From assembly GCA_021798415.1 (NCBI GenBank), contig JAJZGO010000003.1:1-52061 (forward strand): a stretch of 52,061 nucleotides of DNA, given 5' to 3'. This stretch comes from Thermoplasmata archaeon (GTDB lineage: Archaea > Thermoplasmatota > Thermoplasmata > Lutacidiplasmatales > UBA184). A program made the translations under genes and the position numbers. The number at the start of each line of letters is the position of its first letter. The first letter of the stretch is position 1. The notes under the pieces were generated by a model. The model had not been told where the DNA came from, did not search any database, and saw nothing but the letters and a program-made list of their open reading frames with translations. Shown piece by piece: positions 25,824-50,869 of this stretch.

Positions 25824-27191
25824 CTAGACCGATTCCTCGATCTCGCCGGCCTGGGGGGTCCCGGCGAGGCGGTCGGCCACGGTGCCGAGGATCTCGAGGT
25901 GACGGTCGACGTCGGCGTCGGTATGCTGGACCGATATCGTCCACTGCTCGTCCGGTCCCGTGCCGGACGGGATGAGTCCCTTGTTGAGGCAGAGATAGTA
26001 GTAGAGCATCGAGCGGTCGCCGTCGACGCGCAAGAAGTCGCGCCAGTTCCTCACCGGGTGGTCCGAGAAGAACGTGGTTCCCGAGACCCCGTCGGCGGAG
26101 ACGTACGCGGTCACGCCCGCGTCGTCGAAGACCTCCGCGTACCCCTTCGCGAGCCGGGAGTTGAGGCGGGCGGAGCGCTCGAGCCCCTCCTCCGTGAGGA
26201 TCTCGTCGAGCGAGGCGAGGCAGGCGGCCATCGCGAGGGGGTTCGAGTTGTACGTCCCCGCGTGGGCAACCTTGCGCGGGCCGACCTCGTCGAGGATGCC
26301 GGGGCCCGCGGCGATCGCGGACATCGGCACGCCGCAGGCGATCGACTTTCCGAGCGTGATGAGGTCCGGCCGGACCCCGACACGGCCGGCGCCGCCGTGA
26401 GGGTACTTCGCGCCGGTCTTGATCTCGTCGAGGACGAGGAGGGCCCCGAGCTCGTCCGCGAGCTCGCGGAGGCCCGGGAAGAACCCGTCCTCGGGCAGGA
26501 TGAACCCCATGTTCATCGGGACCGGCTCCGCGATGATCGCCGCCAGGTCGTCACGGTGCTCGAGCGCGATCGCCCGCGTGGCGGCGAGGTCGTTGAACGG
26601 GGCGACGAGCGTGCGCTCCGACACCTCGGAGAGGATCCCGGGCGAGGCCGGAGCGGACTTGGGGTGGTCGTGCGGGCCGGCGACCTGGAGCCGCGGCTTG
26701 ACGCCGACGAGGAGGGTGTCGTGCGAACCGTGGTACGACCCTTCGAACTTGAGCACGTACCGCTTCTTCGTGTACGCGCGGGCGAAGCGGATCGCGTGGT
26801 GCGTCGCCTCGAGGCCGGTCGTGCTGAACCGCACCTTCGTCATCCGGTAGCGGCGGCAGATCCGTTCGGAGACCTCGGGAGTCCGCTCCCACTCGTAGCC
26901 GTACACGCTCCCCTCGCCCAGCTGGCGGGAGAGCGCCTCGACCAGCTTCGGGTGGGCGTGCCCGCTCTGCAGCGAGCCGAATCCCATGTTGAAGTCGAGG
27001 TAGTCGTTCCCGTCGGCGTCCCAGAGGGTGACGCCCTTCGCGCGGCTGACGTAGAAGGGGTAGGGGTCGAGGAACCGGTAGTTCGAGTGCACCCCGAGGG
27101 GGCTCCACTTCTGGGCGCGCTCCCAGAGTTCCTTCGAGCGGGGGGTCCGGCGCCGGTACTCGTCGTAGGCCGCCTCGAATCTCGGGTCCAT
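25824..27191 (-). CDS. Class-III PLP aminotransferase, GSA-aminomutase-like paralog 1
   Basis: DADGNDYLDFNMGFG, KFEGSYHGSHD, IIAEPVPMN, LDEIKTG, DLITLGKS, HAGTYNSNP. Diverges from typical HemL (DEVMTGFR), so not labelled hemL. Confidence 0.85.
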   Translation of the reverse strand: MDPRFEAAYDEYRRRTPRSKELWERAQKWSPLGVHSNYRFLDPYPFYVSRAKGVTLWDADGNDYLDFNMGFGSLQSGHAHPKLVEALSRQLGEGSVYGYEWERTPEVSERICRRYRMTKVRFSTTGLEATHHAIRFARAYTKKRYVLKFEGSYHGSHDTLLVGVKPRLQVAGPHDHPKSAPASPGILSEVSERTLVAPFNDLAATRAIALEHRDDLAAIIAEPVPMNMGFILPEDGFFPGLRELADELGALLVLDEIKTGAKYPHGGAGRVGVRPDLITLGKSIACGVPMSAIAAGPGILDEVGPRKVAHAGTYNSNPLAMAACLASLDEILTEEGLERSARLNSRLAKGYAEVFDDAGVTAYVSADGVSGTTFFSDHPVRNWRDFLRVDGDRSMLYYYLCLNKGLIPSGTGPDEQWTISVQHTDADVDRHLEILGTVADRLAGTPQAGEIEESV

Positions 27192-27352
27192 GGCCCACTC
27201 CTCCGACCGCCGGCGGCTCGGGCCCACCGGCGCGGTTTGGAGCGGGGGCCCCTACAAAAGGGCATGCGGGACGGGGAAATTTCGACAATCGCCGAACTCC
27301 GGGACCCGAGAGGGTCAAGACCTCCGATGGCTCGGGCGGGGAAGGGTAGTCC

Positions 27353-28801
27353 ATGTCCGAAGCGGAAACGGTCGAGAACTACGTCGCCGGCGCCTGGGTG
27401 CGCCCGTCCGCACTGGGGACGCTCGACGTCCCGGACCCCTCGACGGGCGTCGTGATCGCCCGGGTCCCCCGGTCGGACGCCCGGGCGGTCGACACGGCGG
27501 TCCGGGCGGCGCGAGCGGCGTTCCTCACTTGGCGGGACGTGCCGGTCGCGGAACGGGCGCGCAAGGTCCTCGCGCTGCGGAACCTCCTCGAGGCCCACGC
27601 GGAGGAGCTCGCCCGCACGGTCGTCCGCGAGAACGGCAAGACGATCGACGAGGCCCGCGGGTCGGTCCGCCGCGGGATCGAGGCGACGGAGTTCGCCGCG
27701 AGCGCCCCCACGACGATGCAGGGGGCGTTCCTCGAGGACGTCTCTCCGGGCGTCGACACGACGCTCGTGCGCCAGCCCCTCGGGGTCGTCGTCGGCATCA
27801 CCCCGTTCAACTTTCCGGTCATGATCCCGCTCTGGATGGTCCCGCTCGCGCTCGTCTGCGGCAACGCGGTCGTCCTGAAGCCTTCCGAGCGGGTGCCGCT
27901 CTCGGCCGTGCGCCTCGCCCGGTGGATCGACGAGGCCGGCTTTCCGGCCGGGACGTTCAACCTCGTCCACGGGGACGCCCCGGCGGTCGACGCGCTCCTG
28001 GCGCATCCCGGGGTCGACGCGGTCTCGTTCGTCGGCTCGGCCCCGACCGCCCGCCACATCTACACGACCGCCGCCGCACACGGTAAGCGCGTCCAGGCGC
28101 TCGCCGGCGCGAAGAACCATCTCATCGTGATGCCCGACGCCGACCTCGAGCGCTCGGTGCCGGCGATCGTGTCGAGCGCGTTCGGCCAGTCGGGCGAGCG
28201 CTGCCTCGCGGCGAGCGTGATCGTCGCGGTCGAACCCGGCGCGGATCGGCTCGTCGAACGGCTCGCGAAGGCCGTCAAGGCGCTCACCACCGGGCCGGCC
28301 GACGACCCCGCGACGCACGTCGGGCCCGTGATCCGCCCGGACCACCGCGACCGGGTCCTGGCGTGGATCCGCGACGGCGAGGCGGGAGGCGCCCGCGTCG
28401 TCGCGCGGGGCCGGGTCCCCGAGGGCTCGGACGGGTACTACGTGCCCCCGGTGCTGTTCGACGGGGTACGACCCGAGATGGCGATCGCCCAGGAGGAGGT
28501 CTTCGGCCCCGTGCTCTCGGTCGTGCGCGTCGCCTCGCTCGCCGAGGGGATCGAGGTCGCCAACCGGTCGAGGTTCGGCAACGCGGCGGCGATCTTCACG
28601 CGCGACGGCCGGGCCGCGCGGGAGTTCACGCACCGGATCGAGGCCGGCATGATCGGTGTCAACATCGGCGTCCCGGCGCCCGCCGCGTACTTCCCGTTCG
28701 TCGGGTGGAAGGGGTCGTTCTACGGCGACCTCCACGCGACCGGCCGGGACGCGATCGACTTCTACACCCGCAAGAAGGTCATCACGAGCCGCTGGTTCTA
28801 G
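27353..28801 (+). CDS. mmsA: CoA-acylating (methyl)malonate-semialdehyde dehydrogenase
   Basis: GITPFNFPVMIPLWM, KPSERVP, SFVGS, RVQALAGAKNH, GERCLA, IGVNIGVPAP, FVGWKGSFYGDLH, FYTRKKVITSRW. Confidence 0.92.
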   Translation: MSEAETVENYVAGAWVRPSALGTLDVPDPSTGVVIARVPRSDARAVDTAVRAARAAFLTWRDVPVAERARKVLALRNLLEAHAEELARTVVRENGKTIDEARGSVRRGIEATEFAASAPTTMQGAFLEDVSPGVDTTLVRQPLGVVVGITPFNFPVMIPLWMVPLALVCGNAVVLKPSERVPLSAVRLARWIDEAGFPAGTFNLVHGDAPAVDALLAHPGVDAVSFVGSAPTARHIYTTAAAHGKRVQALAGAKNHLIVMPDADLERSVPAIVSSAFGQSGERCLAASVIVAVEPGADRLVERLAKAVKALTTGPADDPATHVGPVIRPDHRDRVLAWIRDGEAGGARVVARGRVPEGSDGYYVPPVLFDGVRPEMAIAQEEVFGPVLSVVRVASLAEGIEVANRSRFGNAAAIFTRDGRAAREFTHRIEAGMIGVNIGVPAPAAYFPFVGWKGSFYGDLHATGRDAIDFYTRKKVITSRWF

Positions 28802-30023
28802 GGCCCGGGCGCGCGGGCGGGAGCCGACGCACCACCGGGACCCAGAGGAGCGCGGCCCCGACCGCGCCGACCGCGCTGAGCCCGAACATCGGGACGATGC
28901 CGACGCCGAGGCTCAGGACCACGCCGGCGACGACGGCCCCCGCGAGGCCGCCGAAGTTGAACGCGGCGGTCATGAGCCCGACGGCCCTCCCGCGCTCCTC
29001 CGGGGTGCTCGCGTCCGTCGCCTCGCGGACCCCGGCGACCGTGAAGAAGACGGCGACCGGGACGACCCAGACCCCGAACGTCACGGCGTAGTTCGGTACG
29101 GCGAAGAGCGCGACCCAGATCGCCGCGTACGCGCTCGCCGAGAGGACGAGGACCCACCGGCGGCTCGCCACCGGCTCGGCGAGGCGCCCCGAGAGGGGGG
29201 CGGCCGCCAGGTTGAAGAGCGAGGAGACCGCGAGCCAGACGGCTAGCTGCTGGTCCTCGTTGAACGGAACGCCGAAGAACCCCTGCCGGGCGAGCGTGGC
29301 CGCGAGGTAGACCGGGACCGCGCTCACCGCCATGTACCGGAACGTCGCGACCGCGGTCGTCGCGCCGGCGAGCTCGAGGACCTCGCGGCGGAGATGGGAC
29401 CCCGCACCCGCCGGCCCCCTCGGTGCGCGCCGGTGCGGAAGGTCCCCCGCGAGCGCGTAGGCGACCGCCGCTACGGCGGTGAGCGCCGCGAGGAGCCCGA
29501 CGAGCGCCCAGCCCCCGGCCGAGTCGAAGCGGAACGTCGGACCCGAGAGGAGCGGGACGCTCGCGACCACGCCGAGGAGCATCCCGCCGCTCGACGCGAA
29601 CTGGAGCCACCCGAGCCGCGGACCCGCGCTCCGGCCCGCCTCCTCGGTCGCGAGGGTCGTCGCGAGGACGACCGACCCGAAGAGCGCGCTCTGGAGCACG
29701 CGGAGCACGAAGAGCTCGACCGCTCCGCCGAGCGGCAGGAGGAGGAAGATCGGGGCCTGGAGCGCCGTCGCGACGACGAGGAGCCCGCGACGGCCCCCCC
29801 GACGGTCCGAGAGCCACCCCCACCCGTACGACGCGAGGGTCTGGCTCGCGAGCGGGGCCCCGAGGACGAGCGTCGCGAGGAGCGGCCCCCCGCCGAGCTC
29901 GAGCTCGACGAACGGGAGGACCGCGAGGAGGACGCCGTAGCTCGCGTACGCGAGCCAGGTGCCCGCGGCGACGCGGGAGAACGAGAACGGGGCGTGGACG
30001 GGTCCCCCGCCGGCCCCCGGCAC
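28782..30023 (-). CDS. MFS transporter
   Basis: About 12 TM; WGWLSDRRGGRR motif A, EERGRAVGL; last gene of the amidohydrolase-aminotransferase operon. Confidence 0.85.
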   Translation of the reverse strand: MPGAGGGPVHAPFSFSRVAAGTWLAYASYGVLLAVLPFVELELGGGPLLATLVLGAPLASQTLASYGWGWLSDRRGGRRGLLVVATALQAPIFLLLPLGGAVELFVLRVLQSALFGSVVLATTLATEEAGRSAGPRLGWLQFASSGGMLLGVVASVPLLSGPTFRFDSAGGWALVGLLAALTAVAAVAYALAGDLPHRRAPRGPAGAGSHLRREVLELAGATTAVATFRYMAVSAVPVYLAATLARQGFFGVPFNEDQQLAVWLAVSSLFNLAAAPLSGRLAEPVASRRWVLVLSASAYAAIWVALFAVPNYAVTFGVWVVPVAVFFTVAGVREATDASTPEERGRAVGLMTAAFNFGGLAGAVVAGVVLSLGVGIVPMFGLSAVGAVGAALLWVPVVRRLPPARPGPRTSGS

Positions 30024-30033: not shown

Positions 30034-31371
30034 TTACGCGGCGACGACCTTCTGGTCGGCCACCACGAGCGATCGGTCGAGGACGTCGAGCGCGCGGTCG
30101 AGCTCCTCGCGGGTCACGATGAGCGGCGGCGCGACGATGAGGTGGGACACCCAGCCGACGCAGAAGACCCCCTCCTTCAACATCGCCGCCGTCACCTGCT
30201 CGACGACCAGGGGGCGGCCGGCCAGCTTGTCGTCCTCGGTGTTGAACGGCTCGCGCGTCGCCCGGTTCTTCACGAGCTCGACGGCCGCGAAGAGGCCGAG
30301 ACCCCTCACCTCGCCGACGGACGGGTGGGCGTCGCGGATCTCCCCGAGGCGGCGGAGGAGGTACTCCCCGTCGCGGCGCGACTTCTCGAGGAGACCGAGC
30401 CGGCGGTACTCGCCGATCGCGGCGACCGCGGGCGCGAGCGTCAGCGGATGCGCTTCGTAGGTGTGGCCGTGGGGGAAGTAGCGGTCGCGGAAGGCGTCGT
30501 GGACCTCGGCGGTCGACGCCGTGAGCCCGAGCGGCACCTGGGCGCCCGTGATCCCCTTCGCCGTCGTGAGGAGGTCCGGCCGCACGCCCCAGTGGTCGAC
30601 CGCGAACCATTCGCCGACGCGGCCCCAGGCGCTCATCACCTCGTCCGCGATCAGGAGCACGCCGTGCTTCTTCGTGATCTCGCGCAGGCGCGGCAGGTAC
30701 TCCGGGACCGGCACGAGCACGCCGTTGGTCCCGACGACCGGCTCGACGATCATCGCCGCGACGTCCCCCTCGCGCTCGAGCTGGTAGTCGACGTACTCGG
30801 CGCAGGCGACGCCGCACTCGGGATACGTCCGCCCGAACGGGCAGCGGTAGCAGTAGCAGTCCGGGGCGAAGACGGTCCCCGGGACCTTCTCGAGCGGCTC
30901 GATCGCGCGACGACGGAACTCGCCGGTCACGCTGATCGACGCCGCGGTCGAGCCGTGATACGACCGGTACCGCGCGACGACCTTCGTCCGTCCGGTCACC
31001 GCGCGCGCGATCTTGAGCGCCGCCTCGTTCGCCTCCGTCCCCGAGGTGCTGAAGAAGAAGCGGGAGAGGCCCTTCGGAAGGACTTCGGTGAGGACCGAGC
31101 TGAGGCGCGCGCGGGCCTCGGTCGCGAACCCCGGGGCCGCATAGGCGACCGAGCGCGCCTGCTCGGCGATCGCCTCGGCGACGGCGGCGTTGCCGTGGCC
31201 CAGGTTCGTCGCGATCAGCTGGGAAGAGAGGTCGATGTACTCGCGGCCGGCCCCGTCCCAGAACTTCGACCCTTGCGCGCGCGCGAGGACGAGGGGGTCC
31301 CAGCCGCCCTGACGGCGCCACGTGACGTAGTTCGTCTCTCGGACGATGCGGCGGATCTCCTCGGGGTCCAT
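30034..31371 (-). CDS. Class-III aminotransferase (omega-amine/taurine/beta-alanine-type)
   Basis: YIDLSSQLIATNLGH, STSGTEANE, YRSYHGST, IVEPVVGTNG, IADEVMSAWGR, TTAKGIT, HGHTYEAHP. Confidence 0.9.
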   Translation of the reverse strand: MDPEEIRRIVRETNYVTWRRQGGWDPLVLARAQGSKFWDGAGREYIDLSSQLIATNLGHGNAAVAEAIAEQARSVAYAAPGFATEARARLSSVLTEVLPKGLSRFFFSTSGTEANEAALKIARAVTGRTKVVARYRSYHGSTAASISVTGEFRRRAIEPLEKVPGTVFAPDCYCYRCPFGRTYPECGVACAEYVDYQLEREGDVAAMIVEPVVGTNGVLVPVPEYLPRLREITKKHGVLLIADEVMSAWGRVGEWFAVDHWGVRPDLLTTAKGITGAQVPLGLTASTAEVHDAFRDRYFPHGHTYEAHPLTLAPAVAAIGEYRRLGLLEKSRRDGEYLLRRLGEIRDAHPSVGEVRGLGLFAAVELVKNRATREPFNTEDDKLAGRPLVVEQVTAAMLKEGVFCVGWVSHLIVAPPLIVTREELDRALDVLDRSLVVADQKVVAA

Positions 31372-31398: not shown

Positions 31399-32259
31399 TT
31401 ATGAGGACCCGGTCCGGCGCGGGGCCGGCTCGGGCAGTCGGAACAGTCGACGGGCGTTCCCGCCCAGGATCGCGTCGAGGTCCTCGGCCGGAAGGTCGAG
31501 CCCGCGGACGAGGTCGACCGCGACGGTGAGCTCCTCGAGGGGCCAGTCGGAACCGTAGAGGATCCGGTCGGGCGAGCCGACCGTCACGATCGCGTTGTAC
31601 AGGCGGCGCCGCGCGCGGTCCACCATCCGCGCGAAGTACGGGGCGGACGGGTGGGCGAGCAGCCCGGAGGTGTCGGCGTGGACGTTCGGGTTCTTGTAGA
31701 CGATCTCGGCCGCCTCCTCGACCCAGGGGTTCCCGAAGTGGCAGAGGACGAACGAGAGGTCGCGGTACCGCCCCGCGACCTCGTCGACCTCGATCGGGCG
31801 GGCGTACTTGACGAGCCCGATCCCGTCGAGCGTGTCGCCCTGGTGGATCATCACCGGGAGGCGCCGGCGGCGGGCGTACTCGTAGACCGGGTCGAGCCGG
31901 GGGTCGTGGGGGTAGAACGCCCGGTACCCGGGGTAGAGCTTGATCGCGACGAGGTCGGGTTCGCGCCCCCAGTTCTCGATCGTCTCGTGCACGACGGCCT
32001 CCCCGGCCGTCGGGTCGACCGTCGCGACCGGGTGCAGCCGGCCCCCGCTCGCCCCGGCCACGGAACGACCCTCCGCGAGGCCCTCGGCCGAGCTCGGGGC
32101 CTCGAACAGCTGGAGGACGAGTCCGCGGTCGATCCCGGCCCGGTCCATCTCGGCGAGCAGGCTGGGGACCCCGAGGTCGAGGTCGGGCCGGTACGCCGTG
32201 CGCGGAAGGTCCCGCCACCATCGGCTCAGGTGGAGGTGGACGTCGACCCGGCCCGTCAC
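31399..32259 (-). CDS. Amidohydrolase_2 family metal-dependent hydrolase
   Basis: DVHLHL, KLYPGY, VMIHQG, LCHFGNPW, ADTSG, LYGSDWP. Confidence 0.88.
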   Translation of the reverse strand: MTGRVDVHLHLSRWWRDLPRTAYRPDLDLGVPSLLAEMDRAGIDRGLVLQLFEAPSSAEGLAEGRSVAGASGGRLHPVATVDPTAGEAVVHETIENWGREPDLVAIKLYPGYRAFYPHDPRLDPVYEYARRRRLPVMIHQGDTLDGIGLVKYARPIEVDEVAGRYRDLSFVLCHFGNPWVEEAAEIVYKNPNVHADTSGLLAHPSAPYFARMVDRARRRLYNAIVTVGSPDRILYGSDWPLEELTVAVDLVRGLDLPAEDLDAILGGNARRLFRLPEPAPRRTGSS

Positions 32260-32378
32260 CGTTACCGCCTCCGACCCGGAAGGCCCAGACGGACGCGGCG
32301 GATAACGAATCTGCGGGAACCTCGGGCACCCTCCGAGAGTTGATATGGCGCGGACCGCTGCGTAGGTCCGGTGCTGCC

Positions 32379-42263: not shown

Positions 42264-43283
42264 CTAGCGCCACTCCACGCGAGGGTCGAGGACCCCGTAG
42301 AGGATGTCGGCGATCATGTTCGCGATCACGACCCCGATCGCGAAGACGATCACGACCCCGATCGTCCCGGAGAAGTTGTAGCCCGTGATCGCGCTGAACG
42401 CGTAGGAACCGATCCCCGGCCACGCGAAGACCTCCTCGACGACCACCGTGCCCGAAAGGAGCCCGCCCGCCGTGACCCCGAGGACCGTGGTCGTCGAGAT
42501 GAGGGCGTTCCGGAGCGCGTGCTTGTAGAGGACGATGAACTCGGAGAGGCCCTTCATCCGCGCGGAGTTCACGAAGTCGAGCGGGAGGACCTCGAGCATC
42601 GAGCTCCGGGTCATCCGGGTCGCGATGCCCATGTTGACGAACGCGAGGACCGACGCGGGGAGGATCAGGTGCACGATCGCGTCCCCCGCCCACGGGAGGT
42701 TGCCCGCGAGGAGGGCGTCGACCACGCTCATGTGGGTGACCTGGGCGAACGGCGGCGGGGTCGACGTGTACTCCCCGCCCGTGGGCAATCCGAGGAACGG
42801 GCCGACGAGGATCGCCGCGACCACCGCGCCGAGGTAGGTCGGCGTCGCCCATCCCGAGAGGTAGAAGATCCGGACGAGGTGGTCGCCGAGGCGGCCGGAG
42901 TATTGGGCCGCCACGACGCCGAGCGGGATCCCGATCAGGACCATCAGGACGAGGGAGGCGAGCACGAGCTCGAGCGTGGCGGGGAGGGCGACCGCGATCA
43001 CGGGGAGCACCGGCACGCCCGCCGGGGAGTTCCCCCAGTTCCCGTCGATCAGGTTCGCGGTGTACTTGAAGAACTGGACATAGAGCGGCTGGTGGAGGCC
43101 GAAGGTGATCGCGCACTGGGCCAGCTGGGCCGCCTTCGCCCGCGGGAACCAGACCGCGCAGGGGTTCGAGACCGCGACGTGGGTGAAGAAGAACGTGATG
43201 ACGATGACCCCGAAGAGGACGGGGATGAGGAAGAGGAGGCGCTTCGCGACGAAGACCGCGAGATCGGTGAGACTACGACCCAA
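42264..43283 (-). CDS. oppB: Oligopeptide ABC permease (OppB/DppB-like)
   Basis: SD AGGAGG, TTG start; LPATLEL, SARMKGLS, HALRNAL, VEEVFAWPGIG, DILYGVLDPR. Confidence 0.92.
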   Translation of the reverse strand: MGRSLTDLAVFVAKRLLFLIPVLFGVIVITFFFTHVAVSNPCAVWFPRAKAAQLAQCAITFGLHQPLYVQFFKYTANLIDGNWGNSPAGVPVLPVIAVALPATLELVLASLVLMVLIGIPLGVVAAQYSGRLGDHLVRIFYLSGWATPTYLGAVVAAILVGPFLGLPTGGEYTSTPPPFAQVTHMSVVDALLAGNLPWAGDAIVHLILPASVLAFVNMGIATRMTRSSMLEVLPLDFVNSARMKGLSEFIVLYKHALRNALISTTTVLGVTAGGLLSGTVVVEEVFAWPGIGSYAFSAITGYNFSGTIGVVIVFAIGVVIANMIADILYGVLDPRVEWR

Positions 43284-43388: not shown

Positions 43389-45017
43389 TTACGGAAGGTA
43401 ATCGCGGGGGAGCGACCGGAGCTCCTTCAGCGTCTCGGTCGCGATCGAGACGAACTTGTCGACGTCCTTCTCGGTGTGCGCGCTCGAGAAGGTGATCCGC
43501 TCGTAGTTGTCGGGGTGGATGTAGATCCCCTTGTCGAGCAGGAGCTGGTGGTGCCGGAGGTAGAGGTTCCAGTCGATCTGGAGCGACTCGCGGTAGTTGA
43601 CGATCTTCTTGCGACGCGTGAAGAAGAACTGGAGCATCCCGTTCACCGACTGGACGAGCATCGAGATCTTCGCGTCGCGGGCCGCCTCCTCGAGCCCCTT
43701 CTCGAGCTTCGTCGTGAGACGACCGAAGCGAGCGTAGAGCTCCTCGCCGCCGCGGTGGAGCATCTTGAGGTTCGCCAGCGTCCCGGCCATCGAGAGGTTG
43801 TTCGCGAAGTACGTGCCGCCGAACGAGATCCGCCCCGGGGCGATCATGTCCATGTACTCCGCCTTCCCGCTGACCGCGGAGACCGGGACCCCACCGCCGA
43901 GCGCTTTGGCCCAGCAGGAGATGTCCGGTTCGACCCCGTAGAGCTGCTGCGCGCCCCCCGGGGCGATCCGGAAGCCCGTGAACACCTCGTCGAAGATCAC
44001 GAGCATCTCGTTCTCGTGGGCGACATCGACCAGGCGCTTCAGGTAGCCGGGTTCGGGCGGGATGATGCCGGCGTTCGCCATCACCGGTTCGAGGATCACG
44101 GCGGCGAGCCGGTGGCGGTAGCGGCGGACCATCCGCTCGAACGCCGTCACCGAGTTGAACGGAGCGACCATCACGTAGTCGGTGACCCCCGGCGGGATCC
44201 CCGCCGAGTTCGGCAGCGGCCGCGGGTACTCGTCGAGGCCCGCGACGACCGGGGGCGCTTCCGCGCTGATGAGCGCGAGGTCGTGCTGGCCGTGGTAGTG
44301 ACCCTCGAACTTGAGGATCGCGTCCTTGCCCGTCACGGCGCGCGCGATCCGGATCGCGTTCATCGTCGCGTCGGAGCCGTTCGAGCAGAACGCGACGCGC
44401 TCGGCGTTCGGCACGAGCTTCTGGAACATCTTGGCCGTCTCGATCTCGAGCGCGGTCGGGGAGGCGAAGTGCAAGCCGAACTGCGCCGCCTCCTGGACGG
44501 CGCGCACCTGTTCGGAGGGCGCGTGGCCGTTGATGAGGACCCCGTACGCGAGGTTGAAGTCGAGGTATTCGTTGCCGTCCTCGTCCCAGATCCGCGGTCC
44601 CTTCGCTCGGGCGATGAACGGGGGGACGGGGTCGTACGAGGCGACCCGGATGAGCGAGCTCGAGGAGTTCGGGATCCGCTTCTTTCCTTCCTCGAACAGC
44701 TTCGCGCTCTTCTTGAGCTTCGGGACGAGCCGCGCGATCGGGATCGGCAGCGGGGAGGCGTCGAGGTCGGCCTCCGGCGGGGCCGACCCGAGGTCCTTCG
44801 GGGCGTCCTTCGCGGGCTCTCGGGCGGACTCCTTGCGCGGCTCCTTCGGTTCCTCGGCCGCGTCGTCCTTCGGCGTGGGGGGTCCGGCGGGGGCCGGGAT
44901 CGCGGCGTCCTCCGCCGTCAGGAGGCTGGAGAGCGGGTCCGCCCGGGCGAGGCTGGTCGAGACTCCGGGCTCCCGGGACGGGAGCGCGGACGTCGGGGCG
45001 GGTTCCCTTTCCGCCAT
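43389..45017 (-). CDS. Class-III PLP enzyme, GSA-aminomutase-like paralog 2, with an approximately 90-aa disordered N-terminal extension
   Basis: DEDGNEYLDFNLAYG, NGSDATMNAIR, KFEGHYHG, ILEPVMAN, IFDEVFTGFR, WAKALGGG; strong TTATATAT box upstream. Confidence 0.87.
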   Translation of the reverse strand: MAEREPAPTSALPSREPGVSTSLARADPLSSLLTAEDAAIPAPAGPPTPKDDAAEEPKEPRKESAREPAKDAPKDLGSAPPEADLDASPLPIPIARLVPKLKKSAKLFEEGKKRIPNSSSSLIRVASYDPVPPFIARAKGPRIWDEDGNEYLDFNLAYGVLINGHAPSEQVRAVQEAAQFGLHFASPTALEIETAKMFQKLVPNAERVAFCSNGSDATMNAIRIARAVTGKDAILKFEGHYHGQHDLALISAEAPPVVAGLDEYPRPLPNSAGIPPGVTDYVMVAPFNSVTAFERMVRRYRHRLAAVILEPVMANAGIIPPEPGYLKRLVDVAHENEMLVIFDEVFTGFRIAPGGAQQLYGVEPDISCWAKALGGGVPVSAVSGKAEYMDMIAPGRISFGGTYFANNLSMAGTLANLKMLHRGGEELYARFGRLTTKLEKGLEEAARDAKISMLVQSVNGMLQFFFTRRKKIVNYRESLQIDWNLYLRHHQLLLDKGIYIHPDNYERITFSSAHTEKDVDKFVSIATETLKELRSLPRDYLP

Positions 45018-45221
45018 ACAGAACGCATCTCGGGCGTCCGTCGGAGCCCGAACTGGCTATATATAATTGGCTTACGGCGCGAACACACGGTACCGTTCAC
45101 GTTACGCCAAGATACGCGCAACCTAACGTGCTATTCCACGTGCCGAACCGTACCAAAACAGCCAGCAAACCGTCTCAATATGAGCGATTCGATGGCGTTT
45201 CGTAGCGGATGAGGTCGATCT

Positions 45222-46412
45222 TCATCCGTTCCGGAACGGGGGCAGCGGAGGTTCGTCCGGCGCGATCGTCGTCTCGATCCCGCGTTTCGCGAGCGCCGTC
45301 CGGAACGGGCCCGCCGGCACGCACCGCTCGGGCGGAACGACGCCGACCTCGCGGACCTCGCCGCGGGCGATCATCTCGGCCCCGATAGCGCCTGCGACAC
45401 CGACCGCGTATTCTGTGGCCGTGAGATGCCAGTCGGGGCGCGGGGGGAACCGCGCGATCGCGTGGCGCACGACCGGGCGCCCGGCCTTCGTTCCGGTGAG
45501 CTCGACATCGCAGACCTCCCAGTCGTCGACCGTGACCCCCTCGGGCGCCCCGAGGAGCTTCTCGCGCTTGAGGAGCGCGAGCGTGAACTCGCGCGGAGTG
45601 ACCGCGTGGCCCTTGACCTCGAGCGGGGTGTCGGAGCCGAGGCCGAGCTTCGACATGATGCGGAGGACCTCGATCCCCGGCCCACCCTCCTTCCACTCGC
45701 AGTGCGTCAGCCCCTTCGACCGGAGGCTCTCGGGCAGCGTCGCCGGTTCGGAATGGAGCGTCCGGTAGACCCGCGTGCGTCCGACCGGCGGGGCGAAATC
45801 GAACTCCTCGGCCCCGCTCATCGCTTCCCGGTCCTCGTACCGGCCGCCCTCAAACACGACCGCCGGCAGGATCATCTCGTCCAGGAACGTGCTCGGTGAC
45901 CAGGTGAACGAGACTTCGGGGCCGTTGACCGTGAGGTCGCGCCAGCCGTCGCGGATCACGACCGAGTCGACGCGCTCGAGGTCGCTCGCCGCCTGCATCG
46001 CGAGCACGTTCGAGACCCCGGGGACCTGCCCGAGGCCCGGGATCGCGATACGGTCGGCTTGCCGGAACGCCGCGTCGAGCGCGAGCTGGCGGCGGGTCAT
46101 GTGGAAGAGCCCACCGAAGTCGAGGTACGGGACCCCGGCGTCGAGCGCCGACTCCATCACCGTGAGGTTGAACGTGTACTGCACGGCGTTGACGACGACC
46201 GTCGTGTTCTCGAGGAGGCGGCGGACCGCGGCCTTGTCGCGGACGTCGATTCGCTCGGCGAGCGCCCGCGGCCCCGCGGCGCGGGCCGCCGACTCGGCCA
46301 GGCTGGCATCGAGGTCCGCGGCGACGACCGTGTCGAACACTCCGCCGGTCGCGAGATCGCGTACCGTGCACCGTCCCGTCAACCCCCCGCCGCCCAGCAC
46401 CACTGCCCGCAT
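45222..46412 (-). CDS. Saccharopine dehydrogenase family oxidoreductase (carboxynorspermidine-synthase/lysine-6-DH-like fold)
   Basis: VLGGGGLTG Rossmann motif, VNAVQY, YLDFGG, GLGQVPGVSN, HSEPATL. Confidence 0.88.
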   Translation of the reverse strand: MRAVVLGGGGLTGRCTVRDLATGGVFDTVVAADLDASLAESAARAAGPRALAERIDVRDKAAVRRLLENTTVVVNAVQYTFNLTVMESALDAGVPYLDFGGLFHMTRRQLALDAAFRQADRIAIPGLGQVPGVSNVLAMQAASDLERVDSVVIRDGWRDLTVNGPEVSFTWSPSTFLDEMILPAVVFEGGRYEDREAMSGAEEFDFAPPVGRTRVYRTLHSEPATLPESLRSKGLTHCEWKEGGPGIEVLRIMSKLGLGSDTPLEVKGHAVTPREFTLALLKREKLLGAPEGVTVDDWEVCDVELTGTKAGRPVVRHAIARFPPRPDWHLTATEYAVGVAGAIGAEMIARGEVREVGVVPPERCVPAGPFRTALAKRGIETTIAPDEPPLPPFRNG

Positions 46413-46482
46413 GGTCCGCACCCTACCGCGGGCGCCAAGAGGCCCGGCTATACGAGCCTTCGGTCGGGAACCGCGTACGGGG

Positions 46483-47127
46483 TCACGCGGACGAGCGCTT
46501 CCGGGGGGTCCGTGCGGTCTTCCCCACCGGTCTCCGGGGCGCCGAGGGCGCGGGCGTGTCCGCGGTCGCCGGAGCCGTCGCGGCGCCCGACGTGCGGCTC
46601 AGGAGCTCCCGGAACGTCTCGAAGTGCCGGAGGAACGGGTCGGCGCGCCGCCGATCCTCGAGCTCCCCGAGCGCGATCTCGAGCAGGGCCTTCGCCTTCG
46701 CGTTCCCCGCCGCCCCCTGGACGAGGTAGACGCACAGCACCTGGTAGTGCGGGAGAACGAAGGCGTCCGTGCGGGGGGTGCTCATGTCGCCCTTGCGCGG
46801 ACGGTACATCCGCTCGATCGGCACCTCCGCGGCCACCGCCCGGCGGTGGGAGAATCCGAAGTAGCGGCCGGGCCCGAGGATCCGGGTGACCTCGCGGACG
46901 TTGCCGCTCAGGTTGTTGGTCAGGCGATCGCACTCGTGCCAACACCAGAGGCCGAACCCGAAGTCCCCGTCGAGGTACGCGGCCCACGCCTGGCTGTACA
47001 GCTCGCGCTCCCGCTCCTCCTGCGGGAGCTCGGGGAGGAGTGCCGCCTTCCAGTCGGAGACGAGGAGGTCGACCCGCATCGACGGCGAGAACTCCTTCTT
47101 CGGAGGCACCGGGGGCGGGGTCGCCAC
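46483..47127 (-). CDS. Hypothetical protein
   Basis: TCTAAC box 22 nt before GTG; 214 aa with an aromatic-rich globular core; same orientation as its neighbours. Confidence 0.7.
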   Translation of the reverse strand: MATPPPVPPKKEFSPSMRVDLLVSDWKAALLPELPQEERERELYSQAWAAYLDGDFGFGLWCWHECDRLTNNLSGNVREVTRILGPGRYFGFSHRRAVAAEVPIERMYRPRKGDMSTPRTDAFVLPHYQVLCVYLVQGAAGNAKAKALLEIALGELEDRRRADPFLRHFETFRELLSRTSGAATAPATADTPAPSAPRRPVGKTARTPRKRSSA

Positions 47128-47150
47128 GTCGCGCGAAGAGAGTGCGGAGG

Positions 47151-48737
47151 TTAGACTGTTTCCTCCGGACTACCCCCACGACGGCGGTAGACGCGGGCGC
47201 CGTCCACCCAGGTCTCCCGCACCGACGCGGCTCCCCGGCCGACGGCCCCCCTCAGGTGGGGGACGTCCAGGACGACGAAGTCGGCGCGCGACGCGGGTTC
47301 GAGCGTCCCCAGGACCGCTGTGCCGAGGGCCCGGCCCGCGTTGACGGTGTAGAGCCGCAGCGCCGTCTCGGGGTCGAGCGCCTCGCCCGGCGATGGGTTC
47401 GCCGAGCGCCCGGACGCCGGGTCGGACCGCTCGACCGCGGCCCGGATCCCGCGCCACGGGTCGAGCGGGTCGTACGGGGCATCGCTCGAGCCGGCGAGCA
47501 AGAAGCCACGGCCGAGGAGCGAGCGGAACGCGTATCCCCAGCGCGCGCGCTCGGGGCCAAGGCGAGCCCCGAGCCAGTGGTCGCTCCAGACGAACCCGGG
47601 CTGCACGACGAGCGCCGGATGCGCCTCTTCCATCGAGGGCCACGACGCGGGTGGGGTCAGGGCGGCATGCTCGATCCGGACCGGCGACCGGGTTTGTCCG
47701 GTCCAGGGCCGTAGGAGCCGCGCCGCCCGCTCGACGGCACGGTCGCCGATCGCGTGCAAGGCGGGGGCGAGCCCGAGCTTCACCGAGTGCTCGATCGCGC
47801 CGCCAAGCTCCTCGTCCGTGCCCACGGGCATCCCCTCCTCTGACGGAAGGTCCGTGTACGGCGCCGAGAGCCAGGCCGTTCGGGGACCGAACGCACCGTC
47901 GGTGAATCCCTTGGTGCCGAGGACCGCGAAGCGGTCCGGCCTCCCCGCGGGGGCGAGGGCCGGGCGGGGGAACTCTCCGAGCCGGGACATGCGAACGTAC
48001 AGGCGGACCCGAATCGGCAGTCGGCCGACCTCCGCGAGACCCCGGAGCAGCCCCGCCTCCTCGGGACCGGTGCTCATCGTGGCGACCGTGGTCAGCCCGA
48101 AGGAGGCGCAGAGCTCGAGCGTCCGTTCGAGCGCCGGAGGGTCCGCGAGGTCGGCGTCGGACGCGAGGGCCGTGACCGACGCCATCGCCCCCTCGAAGAG
48201 ACGGCCGTCGGGCCGTCCGTCCGTTGTCCGGCCGAACCGGCCGTTGCGGGGCTCGGACGACGCCCGGTCGACACCGGCGGCGCGAAGCGCCGCCGTGTTG
48301 ACCACGGCCGCATGGCCGCTCGCGTGGTAGAGCACTACGGGCCGGTCCGCGACCGCGCGGTCGAGGTCGGCCGCGAGCGGCCACCGGCGGTCCGCGAACC
48401 GCTCGGAGTCCCACCCGTGGCCGACGACCGCGCCCCCGGGGTGCACCGCGCTTCGGGCCGCCAGGCGGCCGACGAGGTCGGCGACCGACCGCGCCTCGGC
48501 GAGGTTGAACCCCTCCCGGGCGCGCGTCGCCTCTCCGAGGTGGAGGTGGGCATCGATCAGCCCGGGGACGACGAGACGACCCGAGAGGCGCTCGACCTCG
48601 GCGCCCGCCGGCGTCGCCCGCTCGACCGAGGCGAGGGTCCCCACGGTCCGGATTCGGCCGTCCTCGACGAGCATCGCCTCGACGTACCGGTGGCCGGTGA
48701 AGATCCGACCGTCCCGGAAGAGACGCGTTTCGCTCAT
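47151..48737 (-). CDS. YtcJ-like amidohydrolase (Amidohydro_3)
   Basis: PGLIDAHLH, KGFTDGAFGPRTAWL, HAIGDRAV, RIEHA, GSSDAP, LYTVNAG, ADFVVLD. Confidence 0.9.
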   Translation of the reverse strand: MSETRLFRDGRIFTGHRYVEAMLVEDGRIRTVGTLASVERATPAGAEVERLSGRLVVPGLIDAHLHLGEATRAREGFNLAEARSVADLVGRLAARSAVHPGGAVVGHGWDSERFADRRWPLAADLDRAVADRPVVLYHASGHAAVVNTAALRAAGVDRASSEPRNGRFGRTTDGRPDGRLFEGAMASVTALASDADLADPPALERTLELCASFGLTTVATMSTGPEEAGLLRGLAEVGRLPIRVRLYVRMSRLGEFPRPALAPAGRPDRFAVLGTKGFTDGAFGPRTAWLSAPYTDLPSEEGMPVGTDEELGGAIEHSVKLGLAPALHAIGDRAVERAARLLRPWTGQTRSPVRIEHAALTPPASWPSMEEAHPALVVQPGFVWSDHWLGARLGPERARWGYAFRSLLGRGFLLAGSSDAPYDPLDPWRGIRAAVERSDPASGRSANPSPGEALDPETALRLYTVNAGRALGTAVLGTLEPASRADFVVLDVPHLRGAVGRGAASVRETWVDGARVYRRRGGSPEETV

Positions 48738-48794: not shown

Positions 48795-50264
48795 TTATAC
48801 GTCGAGGTACCGGTAGAACTCGTACGGGTGGGGCCTCAGGTTCAGCTCGAGCTGCTCCTCGCGTTTCAGCTCGATGTAGGTATCGAGGAGCGTAGAGGAG
48901 AACGCGGGCTTGAGGAACTCCCGGTCCGACTCGAGGCAGTCGAGGGCCTCCCCCAGCGAGCCGGGGAGCTCCCGAATCCTCAGCTCGCGGCGCTTTCCTG
49001 GCGTGAGCTTGTAGATGTTCTCGTCGACCGGCGGGGGCGGTTCGATCTTGCGCCGGACGCCGTCAAGGCCCGCGAGCGCGAGCGCAGCCTCGGTGAGGTA
49101 GATGTTCGCCGCCGAGTCGGGCGTGCGGTACTCGACCCGCTTCGCCTCGGGTCGCTTGCGGTGGTAGAACGGGATGCGGATGCTCGCCGACCGGTTCGCG
49201 CGGCTCCACGCGATGAAGACGGGAGCCTCGTAGCCGGGAACGAGGCGGCGGTAGGAGTTCGTGATCGGGTTCGTGATCGCGCAGAGCGCGCGCGAGTGCT
49301 CCATCAGGCCGCCGACGTAGTAGCGGCACGTCTGGCTGACCTCGGCGTACGCGTCGTTCGCGTCGTAGAACGCGTTCGCTCCCTTCGACCAGATCGACTG
49401 GTTCGTGTGCATGCCGATCGCGTTGTCCCCGTAGATCGGCTTCGGCATCAGGCAACCGAGCTTGCCGTGGCGGTGCGCCACGTTCTTGATCACGTACCGA
49501 AGGTCCTGGATGTGGTCGGCGGTCGGCACGAGGTCGTCGTAGTGGATGTTGATCTCCGACTGGCTCGCGGTCGCGACCTCGTGGTGGTGCGCGTCGATCA
49601 CGACTCGGAAGTCGTCCTCGAGGACGCCGCACATCTCGGCCCGCAGGCCCACGAGGGAATCGACCGGGGGCGTGCGGTGGTACCCCTCCTTGAAGCGGAC
49701 GGTCGGCCGGACCTCGCCGGTCTGCCACGGGGCTTCGGACTGGTTGATGAGGTAGCCCGCGCCGGCCCAGGCGTCCCGGACGCCGGCGTACGACGGGATC
49801 ATCTGGACCGAATCGAAGACCCAGAACTCGACCTCGGGTCCCCAGTAGGAGTGGTCGTAGCCGGCCTCCGCGAGGACCTGCTCGGTCCGTCGGGCGACCC
49901 AGCGGGGGTCGTGGTCGTACGGGTCCTGGGTCCCGCCGATCCGGACGTCACAGATGAACCGGACCGTCCGGCCGGATTCGGGGTTCCACGGGATCGTCGC
50001 GAGGGTGCGAGGGTCCGGGACGAGCACCATGTCGGAGTCGAAGATCTCCCGGAATCCGCGGACCGAGGAACCGTCGAGCTTCGGAACCCCCGACCGGAAC
50101 ATCTCGGCGTTGAGCTCGGAGAACGGGATGTCGACCTGGTTGTACCCTCCGAAGACATCCGTGTAGAACAGTTCGACCCAACGGGTCTTCTCCGCCTTGA
50201 GCCGGTCGAGGATCGCCGTCGCATCCGTTGCCGCCTTCGCGCCGCGTTTCGGTGCCGTAGAGAT
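48795..50264 (-). CDS. glnA: Glutamine synthetase type I; start uncertain (no canonical start in frame)
   Basis: WVELFYTDVFG, DGSSVRGF, DSDMVLVPD, GPEVEF, HHHEVAT, MPKPIYGDN, SYRRLVPGYEAP, NRSASIRIP, RVEYRTPD. The ORF track begins at an internal ATG (50102). Confidence 0.9.
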   Translation of the reverse strand: MSTAPKRGAKAATDATAILDRLKAEKTRWVELFYTDVFGGYNQVDIPFSELNAEMFRSGVPKLDGSSVRGFREIFDSDMVLVPDPRTLATIPWNPESGRTVRFICDVRIGGTQDPYDHDPRWVARRTEQVLAEAGYDHSYWGPEVEFWVFDSVQMIPSYAGVRDAWAGAGYLINQSEAPWQTGEVRPTVRFKEGYHRTPPVDSLVGLRAEMCGVLEDDFRVVIDAHHHEVATASQSEINIHYDDLVPTADHIQDLRYVIKNVAHRHGKLGCLMPKPIYGDNAIGMHTNQSIWSKGANAFYDANDAYAEVSQTCRYYVGGLMEHSRALCAITNPITNSYRRLVPGYEAPVFIAWSRANRSASIRIPFYHRKRPEAKRVEYRTPDSAANIYLTEAALALAGLDGVRRKIEPPPPVDENIYKLTPGKRRELRIRELPGSLGEALDCLESDREFLKPAFSSTLLDTYIELKREEQLELNLRPHPYEFYRYLDV

Positions 50265-50304
50265 GCCCCCGGGCCTTCCGAACTCCGTCCGCTACTTCAA
50301 GTCT

Positions 50305-50327
50305 CGTGCGGGATTATTGGACGCACG
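50305..50327. promoter_or_regulatory. Inverted repeat CGTGCG-N11-CGCACG with an AT-rich core between divergent glnA and Lrp
   Basis: Perfect 6-bp arms around GGATTATTGGA in the 113-nt divergent spacer. Confidence 0.5.
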
Positions 50328-50377
50328 GTCAACTTCGTTGCCGATTTCCTTAACTTCGCCCGACCCACTCATGAGCC

Positions 50378-50869
50378 ATGGGACGAACGTCCACATTGGA
50401 CGACCTCGACCGGTCGATCCTCGAGGAACTGAACGCCGACGCGCGCCGCAGCCACCGCGAGATCGCGCACCGCCTCAAGGTCTCGCCGACGACCGTCAGC
50501 GCGCGGGTCTCGCGGCTCGAGGCCCAGGGGACCATCCGAGGGTACATCCCGGTCCTCGACGACGAGCAGCTCGGCTGGGACCTCTGGGCGGTCGTCGGGA
50601 TCCGCATCCTCAAGGGGCGGCTGCGCGAGGTCGAGGAGCGGCTCGCGAAGGACCCTAGGGCCTACGTCATCTTCGACGTGACGGGCGACTACGATGCGCT
50701 CCTCATCGGCCGCTTCCGGGACCGACGCGACCTCGACCGCTTCGTGAAGCACGCCCTCCAGGACCCGCACGTCGAACGGTCCAACACCCAGGTCGTCCTC
50801 AACCGCGTGAAGGAGGACCGGAGGGTGCCGGTCCAGCGCCGAAGCGCCGGCCGCGAGACCGCGGAGTAA
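50378..50869 (+). CDS. Lrp/AsnC family transcriptional regulator
   Basis: LDDLDRSILEELNADARRSHREIAHRLKVSPTTVSARVSRLE, FDVTGDYD, SNTQVVL; TTAAC box 23 nt upstream. Confidence 0.95.
   Translation: MGRTSTLDDLDRSILEELNADARRSHREIAHRLKVSPTTVSARVSRLEAQGTIRGYIPVLDDEQLGWDLWAVVGIRILKGRLREVEERLAKDPRAYVIFDVTGDYDALLIGRFRDRRDLDRFVKHALQDPHVERSNTQVVLNRVKEDRRVPVQRRSAGRETAE

Follow-up and report, generated by a model that had tools for sequence, protein, structure and literature searches.

Genes of the proposed amine cluster

This report deals with a gene cluster in 52,061 nt of DNA (the window) from a Thermoplasmata archaeon of the order Lutacidiplasmatales (GenBank assembly GCA_021798415.1, contig JAJZGO010000003.1, positions 1 to 52,061), in which genes g1-g4 and g6-g15 on balance probably belong together as a single module for the catabolism of imported omega-amines, with g15, a dehydrogenase of the Sacchrp_dh family, as candidate entry enzyme. 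Genes were called on GC3 (the G+C content of the window is 68-75%, and genuine genes are marked by a GC3 >0.9) and then scanned with Pfam and NCBIfam; paired scores are, throughout, bits versus the curated cut-off of the named profile. All the elements listed by an initial annotation, which had read the region as amine or polyamine catabolic, were recovered in their places between 25824 and 50869, namely four class-III aminotransferases, three aldehyde dehydrogenases, two amidohydrolases, a saccharopine-dehydrogenase-family gene, an MFS transporter, an Opp-type ABC transporter, a glutamine synthetase (GS) and an Lrp/AsnC regulator. The listed genes are real, and one gene, the orphan g16, had been overlooked. 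The divergent arrangement is borne out as well, the units being divergent or convergent with conserved A/T-rich promoter boxes in the divergent spacers, and so is the archaeal origin, homologues of g15 and g5 carrying the name Thermoplasmata archaeon. Contig JAKAVQ010000002.1 is 96-99% identical to the window, and the sequencing runs whose DNA contains the window sequence are mostly mine-drainage metagenomes. Lutacidiplasmatales (TMEG/UBA184) have been described as acid-soil archaea with ~69% G+C and ~2.1 Mb genomes that use peptides (PMC9287336).

Among the aldehyde dehydrogenases, g2 (27353-28801, +) is, by a profile match spanning residues 7-481 of 482, a bona fide CoA-acylating (methyl)malonate-semialdehyde dehydrogenase (MMSDH; TIGR01722, 573.7 vs 448.5). 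Judged from its sequence relatives, g8 (35416-36918, -) belongs to the PatD/BADH/AMADH clade of omega-aminoaldehyde dehydrogenases; it stays below the cut-offs of the PRK13473 subfamily (575 vs 615) and of the PatD equivalog TIGR03374 (430 vs 909), is 42.6% identical to E. coli PatD and finds in the PDB E. coli YdcW/PatD (1WNB, 395 bits), together with BADHs and plant AMADHs. The third, g7 (33923-35407, -), lies 8 nt downstream of g8 and resembles succinate-semialdehyde dehydrogenases (SSADHs): its best model, archaeal lactaldehyde dehydrogenase (458 vs 650), and the SSADH model TIGR01780 (399 vs 646) both score below cut-off, and its PDB matches include 8HAP (405 bits) and E. coli GabD (367 bits; 39.4% identity).

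Aligned with HemL, GabT and PatA of E. coli, all four class-III aminotransferases retain the catalytic lysine. g4 (30034-31371, -), a putative diamine aminotransferase, is an omega-transaminase of the PRK06062/taurine-aminotransferase/SpuC clade (PRK06062, 424 vs 472), with taurine:2-oxoglutarate aminotransferase (6JIX, 279 bits) as best PDB match and polyamine:pyruvate transaminase (9J4Z) at 226 bits. By its NCBIfam and PDB matches, g6 (32340-33893, +; possibly starting at the ATG at 32379) resembles gamma-aminobutyrate (GABA) and ornithine aminotransferases of the 2-oxoglutarate type: its PDB neighbours are P. horikoshii 7VNO and E. coli GabT and PuuE, it is 33.5% identical to E. coli GabT (291 vs 507 on GabT TIGR00700), and it keeps an arginine aligned with that of the GabT motif NVLRIL, which we take to be the 2-oxoacid-binding residue. 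The C-terminus of g6 is a Pro-rich tail of ~50 residues (33740-33893). On the PatA equivalog NF008570, g6 reaches 233 vs 612, and that model does not figure among the 25 top-scoring families given for g4. The remaining two, g1 (25824-27227, -), divergent from the MMSDH gene, and g14 (43389-45017, -), are GSAM-like, 35% identical to each other, and are put forward as aminotransferases of the beta-alanine type (g1) and of omega-amino acids of the beta-alanine/GABA type (g14). g14 just passes the GSAM/HemL-like subfamily model PRK00062 (407 vs 398) and matches GSAM in the PDB at 303 bits; that it is a genuine HemL was ruled out by its score on TIGR00713 (397 vs 527; g1, 315) and the lack of a tetrapyrrole-synthesis context. 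The GSAM-type SxxxR arginine, which presumably binds a carboxylate, is present in g1, in g14 and in the orthologues of both. At its N-terminus g14 carries a Pro/Ala/Glu/Lys-rich low-complexity extension of ~100 residues; close relatives have the same length (549-552 residues), and the orthologues in I-plasma and at locus L096 (both below) are without it.

Transport is represented by g3 (28782-30023, -; Pfam MFS_1), an MFS transporter, and by the Opp-family system g9-g13. The family-5 solute-binding protein g9 (37047-38948, +; Pfam SBP_bac_5) is predicted to be anchored in the membrane by an N-terminal transmembrane segment and, with 14 NxS/T sequons vs 0-2 in the cytosolic enzymes, is probably N-glycosylated; assigning it a ligand from sequence was given up, its PDB and NCBIfam matches (GsiB, HbpA, NikA) being too weak. 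It is followed by the OppF-type (g10, 38980-40050, -) and OppD-type (g11, 40047-41201, -) ATPases, both with ABC_tran and oligo_HPY domains, g10 starting at a TTG (40050) that overlaps the stop of g11, and by the OppC-type (g12, 41205-42263, -) and OppB-type (g13, 42264-43283, -) permeases (BPD_transp_1). The best NCBIfam matches of g10-g13 are Opp/Dpp/Nik types, every one below cut-off. With its SBP_bac_5 protein and oligo_HPY ATPases, the importer in the window is not of the PotABCD type, which was found only beside distant g15 homologues.

Read directly, the A/T-rich spacer of 204 nt between g14 and g15 (45018..45221, -) holds a TTATATATA box ~40 nt upstream of the g14 ATG and is likely an archaeal promoter, in which case g14 would head a g14-OppBCDF unit. 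Conserved TATA-like boxes also occur in the g8/g9, g5/g6 and g1/g2 spacers; they are unit-specific, and no operator motif or palindrome shared among the divergent spacers was found. A scan for bacterial sigma-70 promoters and terminators was set aside as not meaningful for an archaeon. Some genes of the cluster are expressed: mine-drainage metatranscriptomes, whose contigs are fragmentary and give no information on operons or induction, contain RNA from a near-identical strain that matches portions of g8, g9 and g11 and the junction of g6 and g7.

Conservation of the cluster and of its partners

When 20 window proteins were compared with 53 Thermoplasmata loci (tblastn), the genes proved not to be scattered: ~35 species representatives share the order g1...g12, their proteins being 55-90% identical to those of the window, loci centred on the saccharopine-dehydrogenase-like (SDH-like) gene carry the conserved order on to g20, and the whole block lies on one contig in DATJWA010000027.1 (L004 + L045). 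Beyond g20 the flanks vary among relatives, and within the cluster there are variable members, g2 and g4 being missing in a few relatives and g3 usually absent (it occurs in ~9 of the syntenic loci only). The metagenome-assembled genome YP4.bin112 has the g1-g12 block twice, on separate contigs (L005, L013) that are 92-99% and 59-90% identical to the window, which is either a true duplication or the result of two populations binned together.

Two species (loci L019 and L053) show what the locus looks like without the amine genes. In these, the order DeoC-Lrp-GS-g17-g16 is followed by a group II pyridoxal-phosphate (PLP) decarboxylase of 552 residues and then g5, and neither g6-g15 nor g1-g4 was found within 10 kb, a result that concerns the locus and not the whole genome. 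The two amine sub-clusters thus come and go jointly at this locus, and because both are missing there, yet GS, Lrp, g17, g16 and g5 are retained, the amine genes act as one unit; GS, Lrp, g17, g16 and probably g5 are conserved backbone neighbours and not pathway steps. The decarboxylase that occupies the g16-g5 slot is of the Pyridoxal_deC family (8187-9845 in L019).

Outside Lutacidiplasmatales, ten contexts of g15 homologues (33-43% identity) were sampled, and class-III aminotransferases and aldehyde oxidisers adjoin the homologue in six of them. In I-plasma (L089, Thermoplasmatales, 42%), a run of AsnC, OppC, OppB, the family-5 binding protein, MMSDH (493 vs 448.5), a g4-like (51%) and a g14-like (49%) aminotransferase is divergent from the SDH-like gene, OppD, OppF and a g8-like aldehyde dehydrogenase (51%), after which comes another AsnC. 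In Sysuiplasma (L091, 41%), an aldehyde dehydrogenase is divergent from the SDH-like gene, and a g4-like aminotransferase (58%), AsnC, two class-III aminotransferases and OppD/F (56-58%) follow. At L098 (37%), the SDH-like gene is accompanied by a g1-like aminotransferase (49%), an aminobutyraldehyde dehydrogenase orthologous to g8 (57%) that passes PRK13473 (634 vs 615), an M20 peptidase and OppBCD(F) proteins 65-70% identical to those of the window; the g10-g13 orthologues that accompany g15-like genes at L089, L091 and L098 range from 35 to 70% identity. One operon in L096 (34%) runs from an aminotransferase of the L-lysine 6-transaminase (LAT) family through a g8-like aldehyde dehydrogenase (48%), an SSADH-like one and a g14-like aminotransferase (40%) to the SDH-like gene. 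A g14-like aminotransferase also lies divergent from the SDH-like gene in L093 (39%), where peptidase M1 comes after the latter. The most constant partner of g15 is g14, whose orthologues adjoin g15-like genes in L089, L093 and L096.

Elsewhere the importer is of another kind. In L094 (Nitrososphaerota, 33%), an MMSDH-like aldehyde dehydrogenase just below the TIGR01722 cut-off (444 vs 448.5) is divergent from PotF/D-like, PotB, PotC and PotA genes, followed 31 nt on by the SDH-like gene and then a second Sacchrp_dh; in L099 (35%), the SDH-like gene is followed by PotA, a PotD/F-like binding protein and PotB; and in L095 (35%), a partial PotA-like ATPase precedes the SDH-like gene, two aldehyde:ferredoxin oxidoreductases, which replace the aldehyde dehydrogenases, AsnC and two class-III aminotransferases. 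PotA passes TIGR01187 (cut-off 355.6) in both L094 (372) and L099 (380). A Pot-type polyamine importer therefore adjoins the g15-like gene in three lineages, and an Opp-type one in other Thermoplasmata, and MMSDH is a recurrent member of the g15 modules (window, I-plasma and L094). Around the Pot-type importer of L094 there are in all three Sacchrp_dh-family genes (9286-10503 and 14346-15551 among the coordinates noted), one of which scores 137 bits on the model of carboxynorspermidine dehydrogenase (CANSDH), with a radical-SAM gene next.

The g15 family thus keeps constant company (class-III aminotransferases, aldehyde oxidisers, AsnC and an ABC importer) over large distances and in shuffled orders. 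The clustering in the window is not due to chance, because ~35-40 species-level Thermoplasmata genomes keep the order (g1-g20) at 55-90% identity and the core partners recur, reshuffled, in other orders and phyla. It is in this light that we weigh the possibility, in our view quite unlikely, that there is no single pathway here at all, and that independent enzymes of omega-amino-acid housekeeping (GABA shunt, beta-alanine turnover, general aldehyde dehydrogenases) and a peptide/nickel importer stand together mainly by descent in one order. Such an explanation would suit the restriction of the syntenic loci to one order or family (PMC9287336), the presence of at least five separate transcription units with promoter boxes of their own, the absence of g2, g3 and g4 from some relatives, and the failure to find a dedicated regulator within the module. 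It is at odds, however, with the recurrence of the SDH-like enzyme, GSAM-like aminotransferase, omega-transaminase, aminobutyraldehyde dehydrogenase, MMSDH, ABC importer and AsnC, reordered and at 33-58% identity, in other orders and another phylum, and with the joint loss of both halves in L019 and L053. Because the same partners recur around distant g15 homologues, we favour catabolism of omega-amines, probably polyamines, with g15 as the entry.

The g15 dehydrogenase and the proposed route

The product of g15 (45222..46421, -; Pfam Sacchrp_dh_NADP + Sacchrp_dh_C) falls in an uncharacterised subfamily. Its sole specific NCBIfam match is carboxynorspermidine synthase (NF043000, 33 vs 800), a score far too low for membership, and g15 and its sampled homologues range from 28 to 88 bits on that model and match no other specific family. 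In the NCBIfam scan g15 matched no lysine dehydrogenase (LysDH) profile, the presence of such a model in NCBIfam not having been checked. A phmmer search of the PDB with g15 returned 4INA and 8DEB (E ~1e-11 to 1e-12) and did not find the P. horikoshii L-lysine dehydrogenase 3ABI. The AlphaFold2 (AF2) model of g15 (pLDDT 96.1) has as best Foldseek matches the carboxyspermidine dehydrogenases (CASDHs) of H. pylori and B. fragilis (TM 0.82-0.84, 18-22% identity), followed by P. horikoshii LysDH (TM 0.75/0.85), saccharopine reductases (~0.74) and homospermidine synthases (HSS; 0.67). As far as sequence comparison and the predicted fold can tell, g15 is closest in both respects to carboxy(nor)spermidine dehydrogenases, and not to LysDH. 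A search of 1.8 billion cluster representatives gave ~260 clusters at 50% identity (E<1e-30), in archaea and bacteria; at E<1e-10 the homologues number ~1,400.

In Rossmann folds, an Asp at the end of beta-2 generally favours NAD+ over NADPH. g15 has Asp36 at this place (in 'AADLD'), conserved in at least 90% of the family, where 4INA has 'ASR', and because of this residue g15 may be supposed to use NAD+, which would fit a catabolic direction. This bears on the very improbable alternative of a biosynthetic role, in which g15 and g14 would work by reductive amination, along the lines of the CANSDH and DABA-aminotransferase route, to yield a polyamine or a similar compound. Norspermidine synthesis typically has a class-III aminotransferase gene next to one of the CANSDH type, and g14 beside the CANSDH-like g15, with its CASDH-like fold, has just that look; yet the module holds no PLP decarboxylase (CANSDC, DABA-DC), CANSDC having been looked for in the cluster with Pfam scans, and the g15 family is constantly linked to three kinds of aldehyde oxidisers and to importers, and Asp36 suggests NAD+ and not NADPH.

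The same kinship lends itself to another reading, improbable in our estimation, in which the Opp/Nik-type system imports a secondary amine of the aminocarboxypropyl type (carboxyspermidine-like, or a metallophore of the nicotianamine/opine type) and g15 acts as a CASDH in reverse to release aspartate semialdehyde and an amine. The closest enzymes are after all carboxyspermidine dehydrogenases, the best NCBIfam matches of the permeases are nickel and opine-metallophore systems, the binding protein weakly matches NikA and CntA, and the GSAM-like carboxylate-binding Arg of g14 and g1 would suit an amino-acid semialdehyde. These transporter matches are all far under cut-off, however, PotABCD-type importers elsewhere favour plain polyamines, no metallophore synthase or decarboxylase is present in the cluster, and MMSDH and SSADH would be left unexplained.

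We therefore return to the catabolism of omega-amines, for which g15 is proposed, from its sequence and predicted fold, as the entry enzyme, cleaving a C-N bond of the imported amine oxidatively or deaminating it. The suggestion of the initial annotation that the saccharopine-dehydrogenase-like gene provides the entry step gains independent support from the CASDH-like family and fold, the PotABCD neighbours and the contexts with aminotransferases and aldehyde oxidisers. That the g15 family is an unrecognised class of NAD+-dependent polyamine dehydrogenases, a CASDH fold run oxidatively, which works in acidophilic Thermoplasmata with a polyamine-specific Opp-family importer, is a more tentative idea, to which we give somewhat less than even credence. 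No paper was found in the literature that ties a Sacchrp_dh-family enzyme to polyamine catabolism.

From the family assignments, the synteny, the joint presence or absence at the locus, the recurrence of partners around g15 homologues and the fold, we infer a substrate, a reaction and direction for g15, an allocation of steps to the aminotransferases and a ligand for the transporter. With slightly better than even confidence, we take g1-g4 and g6-g15 to work together as one module that breaks down imported omega-amines, most likely aminopropyl/aminobutyl polyamines (of the spermidine/norspermidine type) and diamines. The substrate would be taken up by the Opp-family ABC importer g9-g13. Then g15, probably NAD+-dependent and oxidative, would open a C-N bond to give an aminoaldehyde and a diamine, or alternatively deaminate a terminal amine to an aminoaldehyde and ammonia, and the omega-transaminase g4 would turn diamines into aminoaldehydes. 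These would be oxidised by g8 (3-aminopropanal to beta-alanine, 4-aminobutanal to GABA), and the GSAM-like g14 and g1 and the GABA-aminotransferase-like g6 would convert beta-alanine and GABA into malonate semialdehyde and succinate semialdehyde, from which MMSDH g2 would form acetyl-CoA and the SSADH-like g7 succinate, nitrogen leaving as glutamate or alanine. The I-plasma set (SDH-like enzyme, two aminotransferases, aminobutyraldehyde dehydrogenase and MMSDH) matches exactly the needs of a substrate made of C3 units (norspermidine, 1,3-diaminopropane, aminopropyl groups), to which Lutacidiplasmatales add a C4 branch with g6 and g7. What stands of the earlier catabolic reading is a coherent omega-amine set (g8, g7, g6, g4 and g2); its 'complete route' and its exact substrate (spermidine/norspermidine rather than diamines or lysine) are conjectural. 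Scored against the profiles of PatA, PatD, GabT and GabD, none of the enzymes reaches the equivalog cut-offs, and together they make up a coherent series from omega-amine to aldehyde to acid.

Several observations weigh against this proposal. Only MMSDH among the aminotransferases and aldehyde dehydrogenases reaches an equivalog cut-off, and because all the enzymes except MMSDH and GlnA (the GS) fall below theirs, specificities can only be inferred. In the alignment, g1, g14 and their orthologues carry a GSAM-type Glu in place of the 2-oxoacid-binding Arg, and because of this replacement their chemistry may not be simple transamination. The importer in the window is peptide/nickel-type and not PotD-type, with a binding protein that is not diagnostic. 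The syntenic genomes all come from one order, so that synteny is partly inheritance, the absence of the module in L019 and L053 is that of the locus and not of the entire genome, and two of the ten distant contexts, L092 (Acidobacteriota) and L097 (Bacillota), are without the set of aminotransferase, aldehyde dehydrogenase and importer, L097 having two Sacchrp_dh genes and an SBP_bac_5 gene. Finally, the Joint Genome Institute (JGI) label for the g15 family is lysine 6-dehydrogenase, the L096 operon opens with a LAT-family enzyme that passes TIGR03251, and at L093, L096 and L098 the g15 homologue has an M1 or M20 peptidase gene nearby, all of which points to lysine or to amines derived from peptides.

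These last points define the main rival, which we regard as unlikely but more deserving of attention than the metallophore-type, biosynthetic and no-pathway alternatives, all of them less likely. In it, Opp imports oligopeptides and the module breaks down basic amino acids or diamines derived from them: g15 would act like LysDH and deaminate the epsilon-amine of lysine (or else ornithine or cadaverine), g8 would oxidise the semialdehyde, and the aminotransferases and other aldehyde dehydrogenases would take 2-aminoadipate, 5-aminovalerate or GABA. Besides the JGI name, the LAT-family enzyme and the peptidases (M1 close by or directly after the SDH-like gene of L093 and L096, M20 in L098), it has in its favour the Opp/Dpp type of the transporter, the good fold match with P. 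horikoshii L-lysine dehydrogenase (TM 0.75/0.85) and the reported use of peptides by Lutacidiplasmatales (PMC9287336). On the other side, CASDHs are nearer to g15 than LysDH (3ABI escapes phmmer, and TM is 0.75 vs 0.84), PotABCD-type importers adjoin the g15 family in three lineages, the recurrent MMSDH is a C3-unit enzyme without a role in lysine breakdown, and a LysDH would be redundant where LAT is present.

The stakes are the same for the favoured polyamine route as for its lysine rival in one respect, that is, the g15 family would gain its first functional assignment even if the substrate is lysine or a diamine. Polyamines are abundant, nitrogen-rich metabolites whose catabolism in archaea is almost unknown, and the cluster is a concrete candidate for a full route of the aminotransferase type in widespread archaea of acid soil and mine drainage. 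If the proposal holds, a widely distributed dehydrogenase family starts the catabolism of tri- and tetra-amines without oxygen, flavin or gamma-glutamylation, and a peptide-type ABC importer may carry polyamines.

Neighbouring genes and known systems

The backbone genes that persist without the module include g18 (48795-50264, -), a type I glutamine synthetase GlnA (TIGR00653, 530 vs 429, frame read from 50258). A role as gamma-glutamylpolyamine synthetase (PuuA/PauA/GlnA-2/GlnA3) was rejected, g18 being a canonical GlnA (226 vs 650 on the gamma-glutamylputrescine synthetase model NF045547) that is paired with Lrp and kept where the module is absent; a part for GS in the amine route is not supported. 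The full glnA frame has no ATG, GTG or TTG start; an ATC (50264-50262) aligns with the ATG/GTG start of four relatives, and the first canonical ATG (50102) would cost ~52 residues of the N-terminal beta-grasp domain, for which the possible reasons are a non-canonical start codon, variation in this strain and a fault of the assembly. About 30 nt upstream of the glnA start (window 50102-50291, -), the relatives share a conserved TGAWGTAGCGG-like element. Divergent from glnA is the Lrp/AsnC regulator g19 (50378-50869, +; best NCBIfam match haloarchaeal Lrp, 122 vs 190), and always adjoining Lrp is g20 (50916-51731, +), an LsrF-type aldolase/thiolase of the DeoC family (PRK08227, 377 vs 297).

The amidohydrolases had tentatively been given the deacylation of N-acylated polyamines, and nothing points there: both genes persist without the amine genes, as in L019 and L053, and their PDB relatives are uncharacterised, leaving a role as polyamine deacylases unsupported. 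g5 (31399-32259, -; Amidohydro_2), which heads the g5-g4-g3 unit, has no NCBIfam match and 3IRS as best PDB match; g17 (47151-48737, -; Amidohydro_3, YtcJ-like) has as sole PDB relatives 3ICJ and 3IGH, both of which are entered there as metal-dependent hydrolases that are uncharacterised. Bacterial contexts of g5 homologues are uninformative (pantothenate kinase, sporulation genes); the closest Clostridiaceae homologue (34%; L056, 9124-10792) comes directly after a type III pantothenate kinase gene, a single case that is perhaps chance.

Between g17 and g15 lies g16 (46483-47127, -), a lineage-restricted orphan of ~200 residues without a Pfam or NCBIfam match, whose homologues listed with a source name are all Thermoplasmata. 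It is more conserved (70-95%) than its neighbours, with an invariant WCWHECD motif, conserved His and Cys and a basic disordered tail, and its AF2 model (pLDDT 85) is all-alpha, with no structural neighbour found in a fold search of the PDB. Being retained in L019 and L053, it probably stands outside the amine module. One relative, L001, has an inserted TnpB/Cas12f-like gene (Cas12f1-like_TNB; 7619-9016) that separates g16 from the Amidohydro_3 gene.

The sequence to the left (1-25800) has no relation to the cluster and carries HerA-like, pst-type phosphate ABC, KaiC-like, ABC-2 exporter, MFS and ArsR genes and an OMPdecase/HUMPS-RraA fusion protein (7825-9129, +). An Rfam scan of the window gave only two tRNAs and no riboswitch. 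One, of 101 nt (15301-15401, +), has an Rfam call without an ARAGORN call and probably contains an intron; the other, tRNA-Leu(CAG) (51809-51896, +), closes the window.

How does the proposed module compare with known systems? The order of reaction types (omega-transaminase, aminoaldehyde dehydrogenase, GABA-type transaminase, semialdehyde dehydrogenase) is that of E. coli PatA-PatD-GabT-GabD. Unlike that system, the window has no PatA orthologue, its enzymes fall below equivalog cut-offs, and an importer and a Sacchrp_dh enzyme share its cluster, in an archaeal host. P. aeruginosa uses polyamines and beta-alanine through SpuC, KauB and BauABCD, after PotD-type import and entry by PauA gamma-glutamylation or by a haem/FAD spermidine dehydrogenase. 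With it the window shares an enzyme of the polyamine:pyruvate transaminase type (g4), an aminoaldehyde dehydrogenase, a beta-alanine transaminase step and MMSDH leading to acetyl-CoA, whereas it has no PauA-like ligase, a proposed CASDH-fold entry and an Opp-type importer.

The mycobacterial lat-lrp-pcd type locus is lysine catabolic. To it, and to LysDH 3ABI, the likeness lies in the superfamily fold (TM 0.75), the linkage of AsnC, class-III aminotransferase and aldehyde dehydrogenase, and the LAT of L096; 3ABI is nonetheless undetectable by sequence, and MMSDH and Pot-type importers misfit lysine. With CASDH/CANSDH (8DEB, 8H4Z), whose chemistry acts on polyamine secondary amines, g15 shares its length and two-domain fold (TM 0.82-0.84); it differs in its 18-22% identity, in a catabolic context without the CANSDC decarboxylase, and in an Asp where 4INA has Ser-Arg.

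In archaea, the divergent lrp-glnA pair is known from haloarchaea, in which Lrp activates glnA (PMC8229911); g19-g18 have the same divergent arrangement, and the pair persists without the amine module. GlnA-2 of Hfx. mediterranei, a glutamate-putrescine ligase, was the only experimentally supported archaeal step of polyamine catabolism found in the literature (PMC8394153), and g18, as a canonical GlnA, is not of this GlnA-2/PuuA type. The Lutacidiplasmatales study tabulates KEGG orthologues (KOs; puuE, gabD, mmsA) without describing the cluster (PMC9287336). In conclusion, the reaction logic is known from bacterial aminotransferase and beta-alanine pathways, and what is new is the archaeal setting, the proposed CASDH-fold entry enzyme of an uncharacterised family and the Opp-type importer.

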